From Methanococcus maripaludis (GTDB lineage Archaea > AGJL01 > Methanococci > Methanococcales > Methanococcaceae): a stretch of DNA of 32,000 nt. The stretch is from assembly GCF_002945325.1 (NCBI RefSeq), contig NZ_CP026606.1:180001-212000 (forward strand), in the 5' to 3' direction. The notes under the pieces were generated by a model that searched no databases, was not told the DNA's origin, and saw only the letters and a list, made by a program, of their open reading frames with translations. Position 1 is the first letter of the stretch; each line of letters begins with the position of its first letter. The position numbers were made by a program, and so were the translations under genes. This document shows, piece after piece, positions 1,899 to 22,494 of this stretch.

Positions 1899-3092
1899 CT
1901 ACATTTTAAAAACACTCTTTACCATAGCCATTTTTTCATCATTATCAAGACCTTCAAATTCAGCTACAACTTTTTCGAGCATTTCAGGTATCTGGATATT
2001 TTGCGGACAGCGTTCTATACAAATACCGCAATCGGTACATTGTGATGCAAAATGCGGTTCATTAGTCCAGAATATATCACTAAGTGTTGCAAAATACTGG
2101 AATCTTTGAGATTCATCATGGAACATGTGTAAATTGTTGTATATTCCAAAACATGTCGGGATATCCACGTTTGCAGGACAAGGCATACAGTAACCGCAAC
2201 CAGTACAGTTAATCTTTAACAATTCACCATATTTTAAAGCAGCCTGTTCTATAAGACCCAGCTCTTTTTGGGTTAATGAGTTTTGATAACCTTCTTCTGC
2301 GATTCTTATGTTTTCTTCAACCTGTTCTGGTTCAGTCATTCCCGATAATACTGAAATAACTTCTGGATGATTCCATACCCAGCGAAGTGCCCATTCTACA
2401 GTTGTTCGTTTTGTATCTGCCTTGTTCCATATTTCCATAACTTCATCAGGTGTTTTGCCTGCCAAATTGCCCCCACGAAGCGGTTCCATTACAAAAACCC
2501 CGAGACCCTTTGAAGATGCGTATTTAAGTCCTTCTGTTCCAGCCTGAACGTTTTCATCTAAATAATTATACTGTATAAGGCAGAAATCCCAATCATACTC
2601 ATCCACTATCGATGCAAAATCTTCCTGCATTCCATGGTACGAAAAACCTGCATTTTTTATTCTACCGTCTGCTTTTGCACTGTTTAAAAAATCAATTACG
2701 CCAAGTTCTTTTATTTTAGCCCAGCTCGCTTTGGTAAGTGTGTGAAGTAAATAGTAATCGATACAGTTAGTATTCAGTTTTTCAAGTTGGGCATTGAGGA
2801 ATTTATCCATATCTTCTCTGGTGTTTACTGCCCACGTTGGTAGTTTTGTTGAAAGTTTAACTTTTTCTCTGTATCCGTCTGAAAGCGCACGAGCTAAAAA
2901 CGGTTCACATTCACCCATATGGTATGGCCAAGCTGTATCTACGAAATTTACGCCGTTATCTATCGCATAACGAACCATTTCTGTAGCTTTTTCTTCATCT
3001 ATGCTACCATCTTCTTTTGTAGGTAGCCTCATAGCACCAAAACCCAATATTGAAAGTTTGTCGCCATTTTTTGGATTTGTTCTGTATAACAT
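1899..3092 (-). CDS. aldo/keto reductase with C-terminal 2x[4Fe-4S] ferredoxin-like domain (COG1453 type)
   Basis: AKR N-terminus (LSILGFGAMRLP, DTAWPYH) plus two Cys clusters, CTGCGYCMPCPANVDIP and CTDCGICIERCPQNIQIP. Confidence 0.85.
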   Translation of the reverse strand: MLYRTNPKNGDKLSILGFGAMRLPTKEDGSIDEEKATEMVRYAIDNGVNFVDTAWPYHMGECEPFLARALSDGYREKVKLSTKLPTWAVNTREDMDKFLNAQLEKLNTNCIDYYLLHTLTKASWAKIKELGVIDFLNSAKADGRIKNAGFSYHGMQEDFASIVDEYDWDFCLIQYNYLDENVQAGTEGLKYASSKGLGVFVMEPLRGGNLAGKTPDEVMEIWNKADTKRTTVEWALRWVWNHPEVISVLSGMTEPEQVEENIRIAEEGYQNSLTQKELGLIEQAALKYGELLKINCTGCGYCMPCPANVDIPTCFGIYNNLHMFHDESQRFQYFATLSDIFWTNEPHFASQCTDCGICIERCPQNIQIPEMLEKVVAEFEGLDNDEKMAMVKSVFKM

Positions 3093-3231
3093 GTTTTATT
3101 CACCCGATGTATAAGATCTGCAGTTTAATGGTAAATTTACGGATATTTTACCCAATTGTTAAACGTATTGTATTTTGGATAAATTCAAAATATTATTCTT
3201 ATGTTTATTATTCTATTTTCATTCTTCAAAT

Positions 3232-3975
3232 TTATTCAGGCATTATTTCATTTAAACATGCAATCGCATTCAATGTTCTTGGATATCCAACATAAGGCAG
3301 TGCTTGCGTAACTGCATCAAGTAGTACTTTTTTATCGTTTCCTACTTTCAAATTGCCGACAATATGTCCTTTTAATTGCGGTTCACATCCTCCAAGAGCC
3401 AATAATATACAAAAAGTCAAAAGTTCTCTGGTTTTCACATCAAGTCCTGTTCGAGTGTAGTAATCACCAAAACAATTTGCAGATAGGTACTTTTGAATGT
3501 GTATTTGATTTTCTGGAGATGATTCATACATTTTATCAATAATTTCTCCAAAAATTGATTTTTGCACTTCAAGCCCCTTTTCATGTCTATTTTCAGGCGT
3601 AGTCGTGGATTGGCCTTCTAAAGGTAGTTTTACCCCCCTGCTTTCCAAAATTTCATTTGTTGCAAGGATAAAGTCATATGCTTTTGCAATTCCCACATAA
3701 GGTACAGATTGATATACTATTTCCTTAACTTCAATAGGTGTTACTCCAACACTGAGTGCACCTTCGAGCATTACTTTATACTCGCTTAATGTCTGGCTTC
3801 CAATTAGTGCTCCCAAAATCACCGTTGATCTTGTTTTGGCATCCAAATCACCATGTTTAATAACTTCATCAAAAATAAAGTTATCAAAAATTTCGACAAG
3901 TTCGGGATCTGTTACGTTAAGTGTTGATTTGTAATTTTTGTTTGTGGTTTCACTGATTTTCATACTTTTACACAC
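3232..3975 (-). CDS. carboxymuconolactone decarboxylase (CMD/AhpD-like) family protein, two CMD repeats
   Basis: Two LD.KTR...L(G/A)AL.G blocks: LDAKTRSTVILGALIGSQ and LDVKTRELLTFCILLALGGCEPQLKGHI. The track start is GTG at 3975; the ATG at 3963 is an alternative. Confidence 0.75.
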   Translation of the reverse strand: MCKSMKISETTNKNYKSTLNVTDPELVEIFDNFIFDEVIKHGDLDAKTRSTVILGALIGSQTLSEYKVMLEGALSVGVTPIEVKEIVYQSVPYVGIAKAYDFILATNEILESRGVKLPLEGQSTTTPENRHEKGLEVQKSIFGEIIDKMYESSPENQIHIQKYLSANCFGDYYTRTGLDVKTRELLTFCILLALGGCEPQLKGHIVGNLKVGNDKKVLLDAVTQALPYVGYPRTLNAIACLNEIMPE

Positions 3976-4067
3976 ATCCTTAATTTTTTCTTGACAATAC
4001 GGGCCATAATTCGCTATTTTCAGTTATTATATTAATTAACTGACTATGATTTAGTATTCTTTTTAAT

Positions 4068-4796
4068 TTAATCCGTTTCAGACAATAATCCCTGAAGTAC
4101 ATTTGGACCACCAAGATCTGCATCCCCTGCACCGTATCCTATTGAACTAACAGTGCATTTTGGAAAGACTTTTATCGGTTTTGCGAAATGGGATAGAATC
4201 GCTGCACCAGTAGGCGTTAGCAGTTCTTTTTCATCTGTTCCGCCTTTAAAGTAGAGTTTTCCCTTTTTTAAGAGTTCAAGCGTAGCTGGGGCAGGTACTG
4301 ACATGATCCCATGCGCACATTTTACGGTTCCGTTTCCAACGTTGATAGGCATGCAGTAAACAGAATCGCATTTGAGTGCATGAATGGCTGTTGATGAGCC
4401 GATGACGTCTGCAAGTGCATCATTTTGCCCAACTTCATGAAAATGTAATTTTTCAAGATCTTTTTTACCATGAACATGCGCTTCAGCTTCGGCCATCTTT
4501 GAAAAAATGTCAAGTGCACTTTTTTCTACATCATTTGAAAGTTTTGCATCTTTTATAATATCTACAAGTTCGAAATAAGTTCGTGAATGTTCGTGTTCAG
4601 GAACATTAATTTTAACGTCCAAAGCTCGAATACCTCTTTTCACAACTTCCTCCATGCTTACCGATACAGGTACTGCTGATTCAATGATTTCTTTTACGTA
4701 AAATTTGTCATCCAAAAGGTCCAAAGTACATCCAAGAATCATATCTCCTGCAGCTCCTGAAAACGGGTTGAATATAAGCGATTTCATGATTATCAC
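4068..4796 (-). CDS. larC: LarC/DUF111 nickel-insertion protein, N-terminal (LarC1-like) half only
   Basis: Motifs FSGAAGDMILG, HFHEVGQNDALADVIG, PAPATLELL...ELLTPTGAAIL and GYGAGDADLGGPNVLQ. The protein ends at 242 aa, whereas full-length family members are about 400 aa. Likely true start is ATG 4787, preceded by a GTGAT RBS. Confidence 0.7.
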   Translation of the reverse strand: MIIMKSLIFNPFSGAAGDMILGCTLDLLDDKFYVKEIIESAVPVSVSMEEVVKRGIRALDVKINVPEHEHSRTYFELVDIIKDAKLSNDVEKSALDIFSKMAEAEAHVHGKKDLEKLHFHEVGQNDALADVIGSSTAIHALKCDSVYCMPINVGNGTVKCAHGIMSVPAPATLELLKKGKLYFKGGTDEKELLTPTGAAILSHFAKPIKVFPKCTVSSIGYGAGDADLGGPNVLQGLLSETD

Positions 4797-14873: not shown

Positions 14874-17800
14874 TTATTCAACAACTTTAGGTCCATTTTC
14901 TGTCCATTCGACCATGATTGGTCCTTCTGGCAACTCATCCAAAGTTTTAAAGTATTCTAATGCAGCTTGTGTTCCAAGTCTATCAGAACCTGCAATATAT
15001 ACAATAGTATAGCTTTGAACAATTTTTCCAGTGTTGTCTTGAACTTTTAATACCTGAATTATTCCTTTGTTTTCTCCAGGGTAGTCGTTTGAAATTGGCA
15101 TTTCAAACTGATCGTTGTATTCTTTTGCAAAGCCATTTGCGTTTGGCCCACCAACGATTACTGCATTTCCAGAAATTTTGTAACCGTTTGCATTTTGTAT
15201 TCTTTCTCTTAATTCTTCAGCAAACTTTTGATCGATTTCGTTTCCATATATAACTGCCGCACTTGAAACGAAGTTTTTAATTACTTTTGATTCGATTTCA
15301 TCTGAAATATCTGAATCGTAGCTTCTTCCACCACTACTGCTGTGCGAAGAGCTTGGTGTAGTTGGTGCAACGTAGTTTCCAATTTCGTTTCCGTTCCACA
15401 TGTCGATTAATGGGGCAGTATCGTTTTCTAAATACTCGATATCGTAGTATTCTTCACCGTAAGTTCTTTCATAGTCACATCCATAAAGGTAAGGAGTGTC
15501 ACCAATTCCGTTTGAATCTGCGTCTGTTCCACTGTAGTCAGACCAGTAGTTTCCAAGGATGTTACTGTAATTATTTCCATTGTATTTATATTCAATTTCA
15601 AAAGGACTTACTAAACTGTTGTTTACAGTTGTGTTTGGCATTATTTCAGAAATATTTGACGAATTTCCTGTGTAAATAAAGTTATTTAAGTAAATATTAC
15701 AGCCTGTGATGTTATCTCCAATAATAATTGGATAATCGTCTGCATAAATCGTATTTTGTGTAATATTTGAGTAATCTTCACAACAATTATCAAGCAAGAT
15801 TCCAATAGTGCTTGCACGAATTGTATTGTTAAATATTGTTGCATATGCATTTATTCCAAGATCAGGATATCCGTTAGGGTCAATTGCGTAATCCCTGCTT
15901 GCATTTATCACAGTGTTTGAGGATATTAGCGTGTACTGTCCACAGGTCCAAATATGGTCATCCACAGTGTTTGAGGAAATTGTATTATTGTTTCCGTAAA
16001 CTCCCATGTGCGCATCGCCATACTTGTCATTATGTAAAACGTTTGAAGAGATTGTGGCATTGTTTCCTTCCAAATAGATAGAGTAATCTACCGTGTTTGA
16101 GGATATTGTGTTATTGTTTCCGTAAACATCAATGTGACCATATGCCCAAGCATCATGTAAAACATTTGATGAAATTATGTTGTAGTCCCCTTTAACACAT
16201 ACACTAGAATAAAGATAAGGCATGGAATAGAATTCTTCCTCATCGTTCGTGTTATTGAAGATTTTGTTATTGAAGATTTTGTTATAATTTCCGTAAATAC
16301 CTAAGGAAGTGTAGTATTCACCCGTTAAAGTGTTTTCGAAGACTGTCGTGTTTAGTACATCGTAAAGATCCATACCATAAGTATCGTTGTATGCTTTGAC
16401 AGTAATGGTATTTATTGAAATTGTTGAGTTTTCAATATAATCCAGATCCATACCATAAGTATCGTTTTCATTAGATTCAGCTGTTATGTTATTTCCCAAA
16501 ATCGCTGAGTTTTCGATATTATTCTCTGCAAAAATACCGTAAGCGTTTGGATAATATCCATCATAAGAATACGCATAAAGGTCGATTATATTGTTTTCTA
16601 TTGTTATATTGACCATATCATATTGACATGCGTAGATACCGAGAGCTTCGCCGTAAGAGTCTGCTGTTATGTTATTTCCTGAAATTGTAGAATTTTCCAT
16701 GTATTTATATGCGAAGATACCATAAGCGCAATTATCACTGGAATTGAGTATGATGTTATTTCCTAAAATCTTAGTATTTACCATATCTTCGTCTTCAGCG
16801 TAGATACCGTAAGCATCTTCGCATGCATCTACTGTGATATTGTTTTCTGAAATTGTGGAATTTTCCAAATTATCACAGGCATAAATACAGTAAGAGTAAT
16901 ACCCATTACTTTCTGAAATGAATGTATTTCCTGAAATTATTGTATTTACTATATTGTAATCGGTGTAAATACATTCAGAATCCTCAGTATTGGATGAAAT
17001 ATTAAATAAATTAGATTCTATGGTCGAATTTACTAAATCTGCACCACACGCGTAGATACCACAAGCACAATCTTCCCCATATGCAGTAATTGTATTTCCA
17101 GATATTACTGAGCTTATAATGGCAAATGGGTAAATACAGTAAGCATCCCCCTCTTTTGAAATAATCGTAATTTCGTTGTTTTTAATTTTTGAACCGATTA
17201 AATCTTCATTGTCCGTGTAAATAACGTAAGAACCGTCATAACCGTTTGCTGTGATGTTATTCTCGGCCATGGATGTGTTGTATATATAATCGCCAGCATA
17301 AATACAGTAAGTTTCGGAATCAGAAGATAAATCGAATACGTTATCCTCAATTGTCACATTTGTAATATCTTCATTGTATGAACAAATACCGTATGCATCT
17401 TCTGTCGCATTTGCTGTTATGTTATTTCCAGATATTACGTTGTTGGTAATATTATATACTGAATAAATACCATAAGCATTATTATCAGCAGAATAAAGAT
17501 CGATTACATTATTTTCAATCGTTGAATTTGTTATATTGTCCCAGCATGCCCTGATACCGTAAGCAGTGCCCACGGTGGAATTAATGCTAATTTCGTTATC
17601 TTCGATCGTCGAGTTTATAATAGCCTCGTCAGCATAGATACCGTTGGCAACAGTAACAGTGCTAACCATATTGATCGTATTTCCAGAAATTGTGCTGTTT
17701 TCAATAGTATCATCAAACACAATACTGCCGTCGTACGTCATAGTATTAAACGTATTTTCCAAAATTTTGGTACCATAAGACTCTTGTAATTCGATAGAAT

Positions 17801-18212
17801 AGCCTTCAGAAATTATTTCTGAATTTTCAAGTGTAAACTCATTAACATCTTTAACGAAAATTGTATCAGATGACCAGTTAGCATTCAAGTTTTTAACAGT
17901 AATATTGCTTGAATTGTAGGCGTATATGATATATGGACTGTTTGTAGTATTGGTACTGAAAAACATGTTGTTACAGTCAAGTACAACGTTTTCAGTGTCT
18001 TTAATTATTAATACACTATCATTGCTTGATAATGTGTTATTCTCAAAATCTACAGTTACCTTGTAATCCCCAGATTCATTGATCAATGCAAATACGTGGT
18101 AATCAGTACCATCAATATTTACATCCGTTGGATTTGAATAATCAATATCTACCGCATTAACGCTTCCTAGCGCAAAAAGCAGCAACAAAAATAATAAACA
18201 TTTTTTTATCAT
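14874..18212 (-). CDS. large secreted surface protein with right-handed parallel beta-helix (PbH1/NosD-like) repeats and a C-terminal globular domain after a Ser-rich linker
   Basis: Signal peptide KKCLLFLLLLFALGSVNA. Tens of ~22-25-aa coils of type ENSTISGNNIT....AYGIYA. Linker PTTPSSSHSSSGGRS. C-terminal ~160 aa (..VIVGGPNANGFA..YIAGSDRLGTQAALEYF..) resembles a cell-surface attachment domain. GGGGTGA RBS. Confidence 0.8.
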   Translation of the reverse strand: MIKKCLLFLLLLFALGSVNAVDIDYSNPTDVNIDGTDYHVFALINESGDYKVTVDFENNTLSSNDSVLIIKDTENVVLDCNNMFFSTNTTNSPYIIYAYNSSNITVKNLNANWSSDTIFVKDVNEFTLENSEIISEGYSIELQESYGTKILENTFNTMTYDGSIVFDDTIENSTISGNTINMVSTVTVANGIYADEAIINSTIEDNEISINSTVGTAYGIRACWDNITNSTIENNVIDLYSADNNAYGIYSVYNITNNVISGNNITANATEDAYGICSYNEDITNVTIEDNVFDLSSDSETYCIYAGDYIYNTSMAENNITANGYDGSYVIYTDNEDLIGSKIKNNEITIISKEGDAYCIYPFAIISSVISGNTITAYGEDCACGIYACGADLVNSTIESNLFNISSNTEDSECIYTDYNIVNTIISGNTFISESNGYYSYCIYACDNLENSTISENNITVDACEDAYGIYAEDEDMVNTKILGNNIILNSSDNCAYGIFAYKYMENSTISGNNITADSYGEALGIYACQYDMVNITIENNIIDLYAYSYDGYYPNAYGIFAENNIENSAILGNNITAESNENDTYGMDLDYIENSTISINTITVKAYNDTYGMDLYDVLNTTVFENTLTGEYYTSLGIYGNYNKIFNNKIFNNTNDEEEFYSMPYLYSSVCVKGDYNIISSNVLHDAWAYGHIDVYGNNNTISSNTVDYSIYLEGNNATISSNVLHNDKYGDAHMGVYGNNNTISSNTVDDHIWTCGQYTLISSNTVINASRDYAIDPNGYPDLGINAYATIFNNTIRASTIGILLDNCCEDYSNITQNTIYADDYPIIIGDNITGCNIYLNNFIYTGNSSNISEIMPNTTVNNSLVSPFEIEYKYNGNNYSNILGNYWSDYSGTDADSNGIGDTPYLYGCDYERTYGEEYYDIEYLENDTAPLIDMWNGNEIGNYVAPTTPSSSHSSSGGRSYDSDISDEIESKVIKNFVSSAAVIYGNEIDQKFAEELRERIQNANGYKISGNAVIVGGPNANGFAKEYNDQFEMPISNDYPGENKGIIQVLKVQDNTGKIVQSYTIVYIAGSDRLGTQAALEYFKTLDELPEGPIMVEWTENGPKVVE

Positions 18213-19330: not shown

Positions 19331-20107
19331 TTATTCTTCAATTGGAATATCCAAAGACATTAAAAATCCAATAATATCTTTATTATTAAAGCTTGATACG
19401 ACCCCGTAAAGGCTTGGAATCATTATCGGTAGAGGGTTGCCATTATTATCTTTAATATGCTGCTGTGGAACAACCAAAGGCTGGAATCTGGAACATATTG
19501 CATGGGCATGACCAGTTTCTGTTGCAATAATTGGCCCACCACTATTTCCATAATTTAGTGCTTTATCAAGTACATAATTTTTCGGCCCTGCTGCACCCAT
19601 ATTTGTATCAAAATTCGATGAAATTATTGCAGATGTAACCCGCGGACTCAATTTTGTATATCCAATCTCACCAGATTTTATTATTCCATAGCTTGACAGA
19701 GGATATCCAAAAGAATACACCTCATCACCCATTTCAAGACGTCCTGTTGAAACTTTTATAAATGGAAATTCAGTTTTTTTGTCAAGCCATTCTTTATCAG
19801 AATTTTTTTCAAAATCTACTTTTAATAAAGCAATATCCAATCCTGGAAAAATGGGCCCAGGGGATACATACTGACAGATTTTTTTAGGATCCTTTGCATT
19901 TTGTTCTTTTATCAAAAATGCTCTATCCAAATCTTTTCTTAAATATCCCTTTTTATCCATAACCACGTGTGCGGCAGTTACAAACCAGCCCTCTGGAGAT
20001 ATAAAAAAGCCAGTTCCTGCAGGAGTGGGCATCCCCCCTGCTTTTCCATTAGGCAATTCAATACAAAAAGTAGCAGCCATGACGTTTGAAAGTGTATTTT
20101 TTATCAC
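19331..20107 (-). CDS. trypsin-like (S1, Trypsin_2/DegP-core-like) serine protease, no signal peptide, no PDZ
   Basis: Catalytic triad in context: TAAHVV (His), DIALLKV (Asp), GNSGGPI (Ser). GTG start with a GGGGGAG RBS. N-terminus is not hydrophobic. Confidence 0.8.
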   Translation of the reverse strand: MIKNTLSNVMAATFCIELPNGKAGGMPTPAGTGFFISPEGWFVTAAHVVMDKKGYLRKDLDRAFLIKEQNAKDPKKICQYVSPGPIFPGLDIALLKVDFEKNSDKEWLDKKTEFPFIKVSTGRLEMGDEVYSFGYPLSSYGIIKSGEIGYTKLSPRVTSAIISSNFDTNMGAAGPKNYVLDKALNYGNSGGPIIATETGHAHAICSRFQPLVVPQQHIKDNNGNPLPIMIPSLYGVVSSFNNKDIIGFLMSLDIPIEE

Positions 20108-20210: not shown

Positions 20211-20569
20211 TTAAATCTTAAATAATATTTCTTCCTCAAAATTCTGAGATATGTAACAAAAAGACTGCGGAGCCCTAAAATCAGGATTTATATCTTTAGG
20301 ATTAACCGGATTTTCAAATTCATTTAATTTGTTTATTTGAATTGCGTATCCCTTATCTTTTTCTTTGAAATATTTGAAAAATTCTGATTCTTTTATCCCT
20401 GAAACATTTTTAAATTCGTTCCAGAGGATTTTTGGGCAGTTTTCAATTATATCTCCAACAATGAATGTTCCAACAATTCGTTTTTATCATAGTTTTTAAA
20501 GATTGATTTTTTAGAGCCTTTTAATATTTCTTTAACATATTTTGGCTTAATGGATAGTAAGATTGTCAT
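20211..20569 (-). pseudogene. small ASCH-domain protein (COG4933-like), frame broken at an A5 run; overlaps the end of the upstream gene by 23 nt
   Basis: ATG 20569 gives MTILLSIKPKYVKEILKGSKKSIFKNYDKNE.., with a stop at 20447. The next frame (20483-20211) gives ..IVGTFIVGDIIENCPKILWNEFKNVSGIKESEFFKYFKEKDKGYAIQINKLNEFENPVNPKD..FRAPQSFCYIS... Together these form a typical ASCH protein. One extra A in GATAAAAAC restores the frame. Confidence 0.6.
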
Positions 20570-22064
20570 TAATTCCGCCCAAGTCCCTTATTTTTTCGTA
20601 AGCGCCATGCGTTATTTCTGTAATTGTTTGAGGCGGTCCTTTTAATATATTGTTCTCTTTTAAAACATTTAATGATATCGGAGACTTTAAGTGCAGGTGC
20701 ATAGTAAATATCATAACGTTTGCAGGTTTTTTGACCATTTCTTCAATTTCCCTTGAAGAATAAACTGTTCTCTTACCTACCAGGTTCATAATCTCTTCAG
20801 GGCTTGTTAAATTTGTTTTAAATTCTTCCAATACTCCCAACGAAGTAATTTCCTTATGGTCTTCTGATCTATAAAATAATAAAATATCCCCCTTTTTTAG
20901 ATTTTTTATCGGGCTGTGCGAGATATATGCTTTTTTTATAGTATTTCCTTCAATTATAAAATCCCCAAAATACTCGTTTAATGATATAGAAGTTCTTTTT
21001 ACATAATCAGTAAACAGTTTTTCGTGGTATTGGGGCCTTATTGGAACAACAAGCTTTTTGACTCGATTTCCATCGTAAAAAAGAGGATAGTATTTTTTGA
21101 AAATGTCTTTGTAATCGCAAAACATTAATTGATTGGGTGTCGGATTAAGATCCTTAAAAAATACATTTTCACCATTTTCATTGGTTCCTATGTCAATAAA
21201 CCCATATTCAGTTATTAAATTAACAATATAATCAAACTCTGATTTCGCAAAATGCGTTAAATACGTTTCAGTCATGGAATTATCAATGCAGTAATCAAAA
21301 GCTTTTTTAAGTAACAATTCTCCCAGTTTATATCCAACTTGATCAACTTTGAAGGTACATATCTTAAAACGCCTTTTTTCAGGTAAAATGGGGTCTTTTT
21401 TAATAACGTTAAAATCTTCACCATTAAATATCAGAACAGCTCCAAGTTTGCCAGATTCTTTGAAGTAGCACCAGCATTCCCTACCAAGACGTGCTTTTTC
21501 ATTGTACCAGTCGTTAAATTCAGGATATTCTTCACGCAATGAATCAAATATCGGGTCATCTACATTTACCTTGATTATAGGGCGCTGTTTAATTTGTGGC
21601 AAGATCTGCCTTTTTTGAATAGAATAAAACTCTTTAAAAAAATCTAAAGCTTCATTTAAATATAAAATACGGTCTTTTAATCCGAGTTTTGTTGATTTCT
21701 GGTGTATCATCCTGTTTTCAGTTATGAGGTATGTTACGTAATTCGTATAAACTGCATACAGGAGGTGGTTTTCAAGGTCGTTATTCGTTCCTTTAAGGTA
21801 TCCAACATTAGTATTAAATTCTAAATCATTCATTGGTAATGGATAATCATTTAAAAGAGCGCAAAAAGCCAGTTTTGAGAGTAAAATCCGTTTGGTATCT
21901 TCGTCTAACGTGTTTAAGTATTCGATAGATTTAGGATGTTTCAAAAGAATCGATTTTGGATTAAGTCTTCGCGATAATTCATTTAATTTTCTGGAAATAT
22001 CCGAATAATCTTCAAAACTGGAAAAAATGTTTGTATCTAACAGCACTCTCAAATTATCCCCCAT
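20547..22064 (-). CDS. 505-aa multidomain protein: N-terminal PIN-like nuclease domain, central GNAT-like acetyltransferase domain, C-terminal ASCH/PUA-like domain
   Basis: aa ~5-150: VLLDTNIF ... YLITENR (PIN-type acidic residues). aa ~165-300: ..GAVLIF..FKICTFKVDQVGYKLGELLLKKAFDYC.. (GNAT motif A-like Q-x-G-x-x-x-G). aa ~330-490: VVPIRPQYHEKLF..KKGDILLFYRS..ITSLGV..GPPQTITEI (ASCH-like, parallels the SIKP.Y..I and PPQSF motifs of the neighbouring ASCH gene). Confidence 0.6.
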   Translation of the reverse strand: MGDNLRVLLDTNIFSSFEDYSDISRKLNELSRRLNPKSILLKHPKSIEYLNTLDEDTKRILLSKLAFCALLNDYPLPMNDLEFNTNVGYLKGTNNDLENHLLYAVYTNYVTYLITENRMIHQKSTKLGLKDRILYLNEALDFFKEFYSIQKRQILPQIKQRPIIKVNVDDPIFDSLREEYPEFNDWYNEKARLGRECWCYFKESGKLGAVLIFNGEDFNVIKKDPILPEKRRFKICTFKVDQVGYKLGELLLKKAFDYCIDNSMTETYLTHFAKSEFDYIVNLITEYGFIDIGTNENGENVFFKDLNPTPNQLMFCDYKDIFKKYYPLFYDGNRVKKLVVPIRPQYHEKLFTDYVKRTSISLNEYFGDFIIEGNTIKKAYISHSPIKNLKKGDILLFYRSEDHKEITSLGVLEEFKTNLTSPEEIMNLVGKRTVYSSREIEEMVKKPANVMIFTMHLHLKSPISLNVLKENNILKGPPQTITEITHGAYEKIRDLGGINDNLTIH

Positions 22065-22135
22065 ATAATAAGATTATAGTATATTATGTTCCCAAAATAT
22101 TAATTTTTTTCGATAAGGGATAAGGGTTAATTGAA

Positions 22136-22227
22136 GTTAAATTTCAAGTCCAATGGCTTAAAATTGAGCTACGCGAAAAAGAGGTATATTTTACCATTTG
22201 GTCTTTTTGAGGTATGCTTTAAAATCG
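22136..22227. repeat. ~92-bp imperfect direct repeat, copy 1 (partner at 30465-30556)
   Basis: By-eye alignment shows ~8 substitutions and 2 single-nt indels over 92 nt. The identical left end is GTTAAATTTCAAGTCCAAT and the identical right end is ATGCTTTAAAATCG. Confidence 0.85.
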
Positions 22228-22494
22228 GCAATAAAATGTAAAAAAACAGTTACTTTTAAGTACGAGGGTCTGCCAAGAGTAGTTGAACCGCATATGATTG
22301 CAATAACCGATACTGGAAAATGGATTTTAAAAGCATTTCAAACATGGACCTTTGATTCAAGAAATCGGCCTGATTGGAAGTTTTTTTCAATTCCAAATAT
22401 CAAAGATATAATTGTGATGAACAAATCTTTTGAATCTAAAAGAGATTTTGAAAAAAACCAGTTTTACATTGATAAAATAATAATGCAAGTTTAA
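22198..22494 (+). CDS. small stand-alone WYL-like domain protein (no HTH)
   Basis: TVTFKYEGLPRVVEPHMIAITDTGKWILKAFQ....PDWKFFSIPNIKDIIVMNKSF follows the WYL pattern (Y.g..R.v.P..l....g.W.l.a......W+.F.+..I). The only available start is TTG (22198 or 22207), inside repeat copy 1. Confidence 0.45.
   Translation: MVFLRYALKSAIKCKKTVTFKYEGLPRVVEPHMIAITDTGKWILKAFQTWTFDSRNRPDWKFFSIPNIKDIIVMNKSFESKRDFEKNQFYIDKIIMQV

Follow-up and report, generated by a model that had tools for sequence, protein, structure and literature searches.

A partly degenerate PIN-GNAT-EVE family protein in Methanococcus maripaludis and its decayed ASCH partner gene

A 505-codon open reading frame in a 32,000-nucleotide stretch of Methanococcus maripaludis DNA (the whole stretch is hereafter called the window) had been interpreted, from the sequence alone, as an unusual single-chain fusion of a PIN nuclease, a GNAT acyltransferase, and an ASCH domain, with a separate ASCH gene beside it. 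This raises the questions of whether the gene and its domains are as proposed, whether the architecture is new, and what such a protein might do. In this study, we found that the protein adds a partly degenerate new member to the PIN-GNAT-EVE family, which is already known and for which we infer a mechanism below.

The gene and its start site

The relevant features at the 5′ side of the gene are as follows.

20547..22064, minus strand: coding sequence of the PIN-GNAT-EVE (PDC-M11A-type) protein, taken from the list of open reading frames, with 505 codons counted from the ATG
22056..22062, minus strand: GGGGGAT, a Shine-Dalgarno-like element 3 nt (AAT) upstream of the TTG start
22073..22114, minus strand: AT-rich conserved upstream block ATCGAAAAAAATTAATATTTTGGGAACATAATATACTATAAT, near-identical in orthologues

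The strand had been left unstated in the sequence-only reading. The longest stop-free stretch in 20 mononucleotide shuffles of the window was at most 134 codons, so the reading frame is far beyond chance, and the proposed gene is real. Purifying selection still acts on it (dN/dS 0.12): comparison with a 93%-identical orthologue gave a dN/dS of 0.115 at a dS of 0.30, with values of 0.18, 0.10, and 0.07 for the PIN, GNAT, and EVE parts, respectively.

The likely true start is a TTG at 22050–22052, which gives a protein of 501 amino acids; the start region is ATGGGGGATAATTTG. Four relatives begin the gene at TTG with a conserved GGGGGATAAT ahead of it, and L091, L089, L002, and L092 share the arrangement GGGGGATA(A/T)T-TTG. 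L089 has a TAA at the position of the window's ATG, and the alignments of almost all homologues begin at query residue 5. The conserved Shine-Dalgarno element and the TTG at codon 5, where the relatives start, contradict the earlier suggestion that the ATG lacks an obvious ribosome-binding site and that the transcript may be leaderless. The block at 22073..22114 is near-identical in orthologues of approximately 60% protein identity from different genomic contexts and is probably a promoter or operator, judging from this conservation. The upstream neighbor in the window is a divergent WYL-like ORF, which was tested as a companion of the gene and does not travel with it.

Domain composition of the protein

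Searches of the single window sequence against Pfam and NCBIfam gave almost nothing, and Pfam domain calls were therefore taken from 55 homologues. A single-sequence PDB search returned a match to sortase, which was spurious. The full-length AF2 model had a pLDDT of 88.1 and a pTM of 0.86, and a fold search against viral structures in BFVD gave generic GNAT and ASCH matches only. The motifs quoted in the sequence-only reading were all found in the large protein.

21615..22052, minus strand: PIN domain, aa 5 to ~150 (Foldseek of the N-terminal model, Pfam PIN_3 in relatives, residue counts in 195 sequences)
21135..21602, minus strand: GNAT-fold domain, aa ~155–310 (Foldseek, Naa50 alignment, Pfam in relatives, conservation counts)
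20550..21062, minus strand: C-terminal PUA-like barrel, aa ~335–505, EVE-type by sequence and ASCH-like by structure
VLLDTNIF: aa 7–14 of the large protein
YLITENR: aa 112–118
FKVDQVGYKLGELLLKKAFDYC: aa 238–259
PIRPQYHEKLF: aa 341–351
GPPQTITEI: aa 476–484

The proposed check, structure prediction with Foldseek for each domain, recovered PIN, GNAT, and PUA-like folds, and the models thus confirm a protein predicted to consist of these three domains.

An AF2 model of aa 1–152 (pLDDT 88.5) supports the N-terminal PIN fold, as claimed: its top Foldseek matches were all PIN domains, including VapC4, VapC15, Utp24/Fcf1, Nmd4, HARP, SMG6, and Nob1 (E ~2e-3, TM 0.5–0.6), and Pfam PIN_3 was found in 29 of the 55 relatives. 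The active site is incomplete. D10 and E18 are kept, but the remaining members of the acidic set, D98 and D117 (present in 183 and 187 of the 195 sequences, respectively), are Glu and Asn in the window protein; the fourth acidic residue is thus Asn. The clade of the window protein carries both N117 and E98. In total, the PIN domain of the window protein shows four deviations from residues conserved at 93% or more in the family, whereas all GNAT and EVE residues conserved to this extent are kept, apart from a conservative L280I.

The GNAT fold of the middle part was likewise borne out. Foldseek matched many GNAT structures, among them 2oh1, NatD, PaiA, and GCN5 (E 1e-5 to 1e-4), a profile search aligned aa 228–290 with Naa50 (E 0.007), and Pfam Acetyltransf_1 was detected in 14 of the 55 relatives. 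The segment that had been named motif A is non-canonical, reading x-G-x-K-x-G-E: the acetyl-CoA pyrophosphate-binding motif R/Q-x-x-G-x-G/A is absent, its central Gly being Lys in 185 of 195 sequences, and a conserved loop, G244-x-K246-x-G248-E249 (V-G244-Y-K246-L-G248-E in the window protein), stands in its place. Motif B is LxxLIxEYGF (aa 280–289). A non-canonical motif A in this GNAT domain was described by Matelska et al. in 2017, who considered acetyltransferase activity to be probably missing (PMC5499597).

The C-terminal domain contains the conserved motifs EGNTIKKAY, GDxLLFYRS, and GxPQ. Its parallel with the adjacent ASCH sequence is genuine; hhalign of the C-terminal profile against the ASCH-partner profile gave E 1e-4 over 132 columns and aligned exactly the two motif pairs that had been quoted. 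Its assignment to ASCH did not hold at the sequence level, because Pfam models detected EVE in 32 of the 55 relatives (E 0.053 for the window protein alone) and ASCH in none, and because GxKxxExR is missing, with an insertion of ~20 residues at the motif region in the hhalign alignment. By structure, the best solved match is ZmASCH: Foldseek gave 5guq/5gus at E 1e-7, followed by 2gbs at E 9e-5.

The ASCH partner gene

20211..20569, minus strand: ASCH-partner pseudogene of the PDC-M11B/GevA/ZmASCH type (three-frame translation, alignments, HMM fragments)

The sequence-only reading had treated this neighbor as a gene. Both of its quoted motifs, SIKPKYVKEIL and RAPQSFCYI, are present, but they lie in two different reading frames, and the gene is frameshifted rather than intact. 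Its start ATG overlaps the upstream large gene by 23 nt. Two lesions were identified. Near 20506/20507, the 15 nt coding for YEFRK have been lost in frame, and near 20484/20485, a deletion of 37 bp shifts the reading frame. Alignments to L001 and to intact partners show that the GxKxxExR motif has been deleted, and the ASCH HMM matched the window copy as two fragments, with positions 30–47 missing. When repaired, the sequence matched PDC-M11B with E 5e-34. L001, the 93%-identical relative, carries different lesions in its own ASCH copy, and by sequence comparison the two sets of lesions are independent. An HMM search found no second ASCH copy in the 32-kb window.

Elsewhere, the partner is near-universal and translationally coupled. 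In 72 of 76 related loci, the large gene is followed immediately by an ASCH ORF, usually with an overlap of 17–29 nt, and the overlap is an identical 23 nt in M. maripaludis, the archaeal virus psiM100, and an E. coli phage. Pfam ASCH was detected in 28 of 34 members of the partner family, which has the GxKxxExR motif and whose closest solved relative is ZmASCH (E 1.4e-27). Long ASCH fusions of 565–681 aa were also seen among related loci. Within the clade of the window protein, six lineages have an intact large gene without an intact adjoining ASCH gene: the window lineage with L001, and P0002, P0003, P0005, P0006, and P0007. The idea that ASCH loss goes together with the PIN substitution D117N was considered and abandoned, as there were too few independent events and counter-examples in both directions.

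Family, distribution, and genomic context

PIN-GNAT-PUA/EVE proteins were reportedly described by Iyer et al. in 2013. They were later classified as families PIN_15 and PIN_17 (Matelska et al. [quoted passage not shown] PDC-M11 is a guilt-by-embedding candidate drawn from genes embedded in RM, BREX, or DISARM systems (10.1101/2024.01.29.577857). The window protein matched the PADLOC candidate PDC-M11A (PDLC04422) from end to end (E 1.1e-156; aa 6–504 against profile positions 2–500 of 501). More than 1,500 relatives are distributed across archaea, bacteria, plasmids, and viruses, patchily among taxa; a word-index search gave at least 1,633 matches, with more than 1,600 full-length homologues and identities of 42–93%, and 515 matches at E ≤ 1e-30 were found among 50%-identity cluster representatives. 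The architecture is therefore not unusual, belonging to a large family already in the literature as a candidate for defense or toxin functions. The literature searched contained no published biochemical or phage-challenge work on any member.

A GenBank entry for a phage (PV340567.1) contains a PIN-less form with its ASCH partner, labelled GevT toxin and GevA antitoxin; these labels are the depositor's annotation only, and no publication behind the names was found in the literature searched. The family HMM matched GevT at 3e-60, and the ASCH HMM matched GevA at 4e-51.

HsdM-like genes occurred near the family at 15 of 80 loci, HsdR-like genes at 8, and HsdS-like genes at 4. The window contains ordinary housekeeping and transport genes around the large gene, and no RM or other defense system, tRNA, or Rfam element was found in it. 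Orthologues reside in different genomic contexts, one of them adjoining a resolvase and a DNA methylase. We regard the window locus as an incomplete (orphan) system because the B gene is a pseudogene, the fourth PIN Asp is Asn, and RM or defense neighbors are absent.

Possible function of the module

The account that we favor, whose chances of being right and wrong we consider about equal, is that the large gene encodes the A subunit of a PIN-GNAT-EVE plus ASCH module (PDC-M11, with GevT/GevA as the PIN-less phage form) acting in biological conflicts. The GNAT-PUA module would use its PUA-like cleft to bind nucleic acid, with RNA or tRNA as the most likely target, and would acylate a base (N4 of cytosine) or an aminoacyl group, poisoning translation during conflict with a virus or other mobile element; the PIN domain may contribute RNA cleavage. 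The ASCH partner, which is related to the RNA-binding N4-acetylcytidine amidohydrolases of the ZmASCH type, would reverse or restrain this activity as an antidote or eraser. In the present lineage, this presumed antidote has decayed and the PIN site is one canonical Asp short, so the window protein would now act alone and is probably attenuated or re-purposed. In favor of this account are the family identity, the three folds, the conserved and coupled ASCH partner with its kinship to ZmASCH and the activities of ZmASCH on RNA, the GevT/GevA labels, the occurrence on plasmids, in viruses, and near HsdM-like genes, and the selection on A in the orphan state. The missing canonical motif A speaks against it, as do ZmASCH, which did not lower ac4C in vivo and has no GNAT-EVE neighbor in Z. 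mobilis, and the lack of any RM or other defense system in the window. That A is a strong toxin is also doubtful, because loss of ASCH should then be lethal, yet six lineages of the clade keep A without it.

A more elaborate form, which we consider quite unlikely, is a writer-reader-eraser system of nucleic-acid acylation: an N4-acyl mark would be placed on cytosine in RNA or DNA by the non-canonical GNAT, recognized by the EVE-like barrel, and removed by the partner of the ZmASCH type. In that case, the orphans of Methanococcales-like archaea would carry a writer freed from its eraser and co-opted for a constitutive cellular role, and their repeated loss of ASCH under continued selection on A would constitute a natural experiment.

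A conventional toxin–antitoxin pair would explain the GevT/GevA annotation and the 23-nt coupling, which is typical of such pairs, and is in line with reported HTH-ASCH fusions (PMC7641849, PMC5499597). In such a pair, GNAT-EVE, with or without PIN, would be the toxin, and ASCH would serve not as an enzyme but as an antitoxin that acts by binding or as an autoregulator that binds DNA; the copy in the window would be an orphan toxin tolerated through its crippled PIN domain (D117N, D98E) or through an ASCH copy acting in trans from elsewhere in the genome. The N117 and E98 of the clade and the four PIN-domain deviations agree with the first of these. However, P0005 retains D98 and D117 and yet has no ASCH, L017, L041, and L044 carry N117 but retain ASCH, and the window offers no second copy. 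Moreover, the GxKxxExR motif, which is of a catalytic type, and the Y/K/QS cleft residues of ZmASCH are preserved in the partner; this speaks for a role in catalysis or in binding nucleic acid and against mere sequestration. We consider a conventional pair rather unlikely.

The family is also said to have been read, by Iyer et al. in 2013, as a DNA-modification accessory of restriction systems, in which GNAT would acylate a DNA base to mark self or disable foreign DNA, EVE and ASCH would read the mark, and PIN would use RNA as guide or target. The type I RM genes near some loci, the derivation of PDC-M11 from embedded genes, the long ASCH fusions seen here, and reported ASCH-HsdS fusions (PMC7641849) are consistent with such a role. 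It is nevertheless distinctly improbable, since most loci, the window included, lack an RM neighbor, PIN domains and ZmASCH act on RNA, and motif A is non-canonical.

Purifying selection in the absence of the partner, repeated ASCH loss in the clade, the upstream block that travels with the gene, and the housekeeping and transport neighborhood would all fit a domesticated RNA-processing or -modification factor of Methanococcales-like archaea, outside any conflict system. The differing contexts of the orthologues, the resolvase and DNA methylase beside one of them, and the patchy spread over taxa, plasmids, and viruses make this highly improbable. A functionless decaying relic, as the pseudogene and the substituted PIN active-site residues might suggest, is scarcely credible given the intact 505-codon frame, the low dN/dS, and the retention of the conserved GNAT and EVE residues except L280I.

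The family is abundant, and comparative genomics has singled it out four times. If its mechanism were demonstrated, it would represent a new type of modification-based immunity or toxin–antitoxin biology and might connect GNAT writers to the ASCH erasers of ac4C that have recently been proposed. The point made by the window locus is modest: selection can maintain the large subunit even when its ASCH partner has decayed, which constrains simple toxin–antidote models. With D98E and D117N, the window protein is also a candidate naturally attenuated variant for comparison.

Comparison with known systems

The aminoacyl-tRNA-acetylating toxins TacT, AtaT, ItaT, and KacT share with the large protein the GNAT fold and a proposed toxin role. 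They are, however, single-domain proteins of ~170 aa that have a canonical motif A and are paired with RHH antitoxins, and none was among the top 50 fold matches of the window protein. VapC toxins and the Fcf1/Utp24 nucleases share the PIN fold and the positions of the family's D10...E18...D98...T115-x-D117 motif, whereas the PIN domain of the window protein is fused to GNAT-EVE, has E98 and N117, and has no VapB antitoxin. A VapBC system was rejected as an identity for the locus, there being no small VapB-type gene upstream and the PIN domain not being stand-alone.

ZmASCH (ZMO0922; 5guq/5gus), taken with YqfB-type ASCH amidohydrolases as a class, is clearly homologous to the partner family (PDC-M11B, E 3e-29). 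The Tyr (FYRS/IYAT) and PQS cleft motifs also occur in both ZmASCH and the C-terminal domain of the large protein; the latter domain differs in lacking GxKxxExR, in its ~20-residue insertion, and in scoring as EVE in Pfam. ZmASCH binds and cleaves single-stranded RNA (PMC5615036) and removes ac4C from tRNA in vitro, but ac4C was not lowered in vivo (preprint 10.64898/2026.02.27.708502). It was considered as part of a GNAT-EVE operon, but the 375-aa upstream gene in Z. mobilis is unrelated and ZmASCH is stand-alone.

GevT of lambdoid E. coli phages (PV340567.1) is homologous over the GNAT-EVE part (family HMM positions 155–500), and GevA comes from the ASCH family that also includes the dead partner in the window, with the same 23-nt overlap between the genes. 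Unlike the window protein, GevT lacks a PIN domain and is viral, encoded downstream of cI, between cI and kil. Other prophage GNAT-EVE and ASCH pairs also exist.

The closest system is PDC-M11 A plus B, which has the same domain order, a full-length HMM match, a downstream ASCH sequence with a 23-nt overlap, and a patchy phyletic spread that crosses the domains of life. The window locus differs from it in having a pseudogene where the two-gene system has an intact B gene directly downstream, Asn in place of the fourth PIN Asp, and a neighborhood free of RM and defense genes.

Gene structure and start codon

The following features of the window are referred to below.

14874-18212, minus strand: NosD/beta-helix-repeat secreted protein of 1,112 aa with a weak S-layer C-terminal match
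19331-20107, minus strand: Trypsin_2 protease, downstream of the A gene
20211-20569, minus strand: ASCH partner gene (pseudogene)
20547-22064, minus strand: PIN-GNAT-EVE coding sequence (hereafter the A gene)
22073-22114, minus strand: 42-nt AT-rich block ATCGAAAAAAATTAATATTTTGGGAACATAATATACTATAAT, upstream of the A gene
22198-22494, plus strand: WYL-like ORF of 98 aa, upstream of and divergent from the A gene, matching PADLOC WYL models (E 5e-6)

The A gene is a 505-codon ORF in the ORF list of the window, which has a GC content of 32%, whereas the longest stop-free stretch in shuffled windows was 134 codons. All the motifs quoted in the sequence-only reading were found in its product (aa 7-14, 112-118, 238-259, 341-351, and 476-484). 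That reading saw no ribosome-binding site before the ATG and proposed a leaderless transcript, which needs correcting. The start region reads ATGGGGGATAATTTG; four relatives start with TTG, each after a conserved GGGGGATA(A/T)T, one relative has TAA where the window has ATG, and homologues align from query residue 5. Judged from these alignments, a Shine-Dalgarno-led TTG is therefore a more likely start than a leaderless ATG. The AT-rich block upstream is almost identical in four related loci (L001, L002, L089, and L092), whose orthologues range down to approximately 60% protein identity and lie in differing genomic contexts; it could represent a promoter or operator traveling with the A gene.

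Domain architecture

Pfam detected only a weak EVE match in the window protein alone (E 0.053), and over 55 relatives it assigned EVE to 32, PIN_3 to 29, Acetyltransf_1 to 14, and ASCH to none. A full-length AF2 model built from 117 sequences (pLDDT 88.1, pTM 0.86) was compared with the PDB using Foldseek; the top match was the Zymomonas mobilis ASCH protein, ZmASCH (5guq/5gus/5y6b, E 1e-7, target TM 0.72-0.81), followed by dozens of GNATs (2oh1, NatD, PaiA, and GCN5; E 1e-5 to 1e-4), and the PUA-like structure 2gbs was also matched. When aa 1-152 were modeled on their own (pLDDT 88.5), the top matches were PIN nucleases only, namely, VapC4, VapC15, Utp24/Fcf1, Nmd4, HARP RNase P, SMG6, and Nob1 (E ~2e-3, TM 0.5-0.6). 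In a profile search of PDB sequences, aa 228-290 matched Naa50 (E 0.007), and there was a weak match to the hypothetical protein 2ar1, in which GDxxLFYHS aligns with the family motif GDxLLFYRS. Together, Pfam over the relatives, the predicted models, and the profile search confirm the order PIN - GNAT - PUA-like barrel, in agreement with the three domains recognized from the sequence.

The C-terminal domain had been called ASCH because of its parallels with the neighboring gene. The parallels hold: hhalign of the two family profiles gave E 1e-4 over 132 columns, pairing PIRPQYHEKLF with SIKPKYVEEI, FYRS with IYST, and GPPQTI with PPQSF. The label does not, since the GxKxxExR of ASCH is absent from the A-gene domain, with an insertion at that place, and Pfam ASCH is not found in the relatives.

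Distribution and earlier descriptions

The window protein is securely a member of the PIN-GNAT-EVE (PDC-M11A) family: PADLOC assigned it to PDC-M11A with E 1.1e-156, and its neighbor, once repaired, to PDC-M11B with E 5e-34. PDCs, including PDC-M11, are candidate systems obtained by guilt-by-embedding (10.1101/2024.01.29.577857). The architecture had been regarded as unusual, but it is widespread and already described. At least 1,633 homologues were obtained by a word-index search. The best 120 are all full-length proteins of approximately 500 aa with 42-93% identity; they belong to Methanococcus, Methanosarcinales, ANME-1, and Asgard archaea and carry scattered precomputed Pfam labels (PIN_3, EVE, and Acetyltransf_1). 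When 1.84 billion cluster representatives (50% identity) were searched exhaustively with phmmer, 1,588 matched at E<=1e-3, and 515 of these did so at E<=1e-30. One genome per species was also scanned, which yielded 80 loci, in archaea (methanogens, Thermoplasmatota, Bathyarchaeia, DPANN, Asgard, and Nitrososphaerales) and in bacteria (Bacteroidales, Betaproteobacteria, Nitrospirota, Cyanobacteria, Verrucomicrobia, and others). Members were also found on 33 plasmids, haloarchaeal and rhizobial replicons among them. In viruses, the archaeal prophage psiM100 encodes the full three-domain form (ORFD), and a PIN-less form is present in several phages of E. coli, Salmonella, and Lactobacillus. In many members, of 330-450 aa, the PIN domain is incomplete or missing altogether (P0149, P0169, P0171, and others), and at the loci L041 and L044 the match begins at query residues 106 and 112.

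(PIN)-GNAT-EVE proteins were described by Bell, Wolf & Koonin 2020 (PMC7641849), who attribute the first description to Iyer et al. 2013, found an ASCH gene to be almost obligatory in the operon, and predicted a toxin-antitoxin or defense role. Matelska et al. 2017 classified the PIN domains of "PIN-GNAT-PUA" proteins as PIN_15/PIN_17 (PMC5499597). In the GenBank record of the lambdoid phage PhiR47_2 (PV340567.1), a GNAT-EVE/ASCH pair at 2947-4375, downstream of cI and between cI and kil, is labeled GevT toxin and GevA antitoxin; a literature search for these names found no paper.

Active-site residues

Among 195 family sequences, the PIN residues D10, E18, D98, T115, and D117 occur in 191, 176, 183, 189, and 187, respectively, but the window protein has E98 and N117. 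Both are shared with its closest relatives P0001, P0002, and P0006, and N117 also with P0003. Its departures from residues conserved in >=93% of members (R58K, Y68C, D98E, and D117N) all fall in PIN, and elsewhere there is only the conservative L280I. In the GNAT domain, the β4-α3 loop is nearly invariant (G244-x-K246-x-G248-E249) and motif B (LxxLIxEYGF) is conserved, but the loop differs from the canonical motif A, R/Q-x-x-G-x-G/A; the same deviation led Matelska et al. 2017 to suggest that acetyltransferase activity was lost (PMC5499597). The EVE-like motifs EGNTIKKAY and GDxLLFYRS are conserved, as are R432 and F453.

The ASCH partner and its decay

In 72 of the 76 loci with enough downstream sequence, an ASCH-like ORF begins no more than a few bases from the stop codon of the A gene, usually with an overlap of 17-29 nt, and two further loci have ASCH nearby. 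An overlap of exactly 23 nt is common to the window (20547-20569), M. maripaludis L092 (2745-4638), psiM100 (L098, 3510-5355), and the E. coli phage PhiR47_2 (L097, 2947-4375). Pfam recognized ASCH in 28 of 34 partners. The partner family shows no variation at G21, K23, P121, Q122, and S123 and almost none at E26, R28, and Y44. At some loci (L019, L026, L053, L054, L060, and L072), the partner forms the N-terminal part of a considerably longer protein: 565 aa, 300 aa, 681 aa in Methanosarcina, and ~331 aa in Betaproteobacteria. Bell et al. mention fusions to HsdS and HTH, to which these presumably correspond.

The closest solved relative of the partners, and the only close one studied biochemically, is ZmASCH (E 1.4e-27), which itself matches PDC-M11B (E 3e-29). 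It binds both ssRNA and ssDNA, and its cleavage of ssRNA depends on Mg; Tyr47, Lys53, and Ser128 lie in its cleft (PMC5615036). In a 2026 preprint, 19 ASCH proteins including ZmASCH stripped N4-acetylcytidine from tRNA in vitro, and the ZmASCH effect in vivo was not significant (10.64898/2026.02.27.708502). ZmASCH is an orphan in its genome (5guq; L093 6001-6447): the 375-aa gene upstream showed no GNAT-EVE similarity and no PADLOC or Pfam match.

The adjacent ASCH gene reported from the sequence proved to be a pseudogene; both quoted strings exist, but in two different reading frames. Its ATG lies at 20569, 23 nt inside the A gene. Compared with the intact M. maripaludis partner, it has lost YEFRK, and with it the signature-motif residues E and R, and a 37-bp deletion shifts its frame. 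The 93%-identical relative L001 has the same YEFRK loss, whereas the lesions that followed are different ones, comprising a stop codon and two small indels; by this comparison, decay began in a common ancestor and then continued independently. Among other members of the Methanococcales-like clade, P0002, P0003, P0005, P0006, and P0007 have no ASCH at all, and only P0004, neighbored by a DNA methylase and a resolvase, keeps it. In the ASCH-less loci L002 and L096, the ATG and first few ASCH codons remain within the A-gene 3' end. Between the window and L001, dN/dS of the A gene is 0.115 at a dS of 0.30 (PIN 0.18, GNAT 0.10, and EVE 0.07); the A gene is under purifying selection despite the decay of its partner.

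Trypsin_2 proteases also occur near A orthologues at L001 (2762-3538, 98% identity), L091 (838-1620, 89%), and L089 (8874-9657, 62%, split over two frames), which could reflect shared synteny or a functional link; the protease weakly matches the PADLOC protease effectors RT-Protease_XI, PDC-M35A, and LmuA. The WYL-like ORF has no Pfam match and is missing from all related loci, L001 included. The remaining window genes encode transporters, regulators, redox enzymes, and the NosD-like surface protein, which is Asn-rich with repetitive NSTI(E/S)xN units.

Possible function

In the mechanism that we infer, the GNAT-PUA module would bind and probably acylate RNA, the PIN domain would add RNA cleavage, and the ASCH partner would act as eraser or antidote, the whole forming a mobile conflict module. 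This favored RNA-acylation/eraser model is weakened by the non-canonical motif A and by the fact that A genes without ASCH have survived under selection; the latter also speaks against A being an unconditional lethal toxin and suggests that this lineage carries an attenuated or re-purposed form. One rival is a toxin-antitoxin pair of the binding type. Another is a DNA-marking accessory of restriction-modification systems: type I systems are reported to be frequent neighbors of the family (PMC7641849), and the window contains no restriction-modification or known defense system. The A gene could also be a domesticated housekeeping factor, kept under selection after ASCH was lost. A decaying relic would fit the partner but not the constraint on the A gene. 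Compared with known systems, the locus is a partly degenerate case of an already known, uncharacterized kind of protein and is of modest interest.
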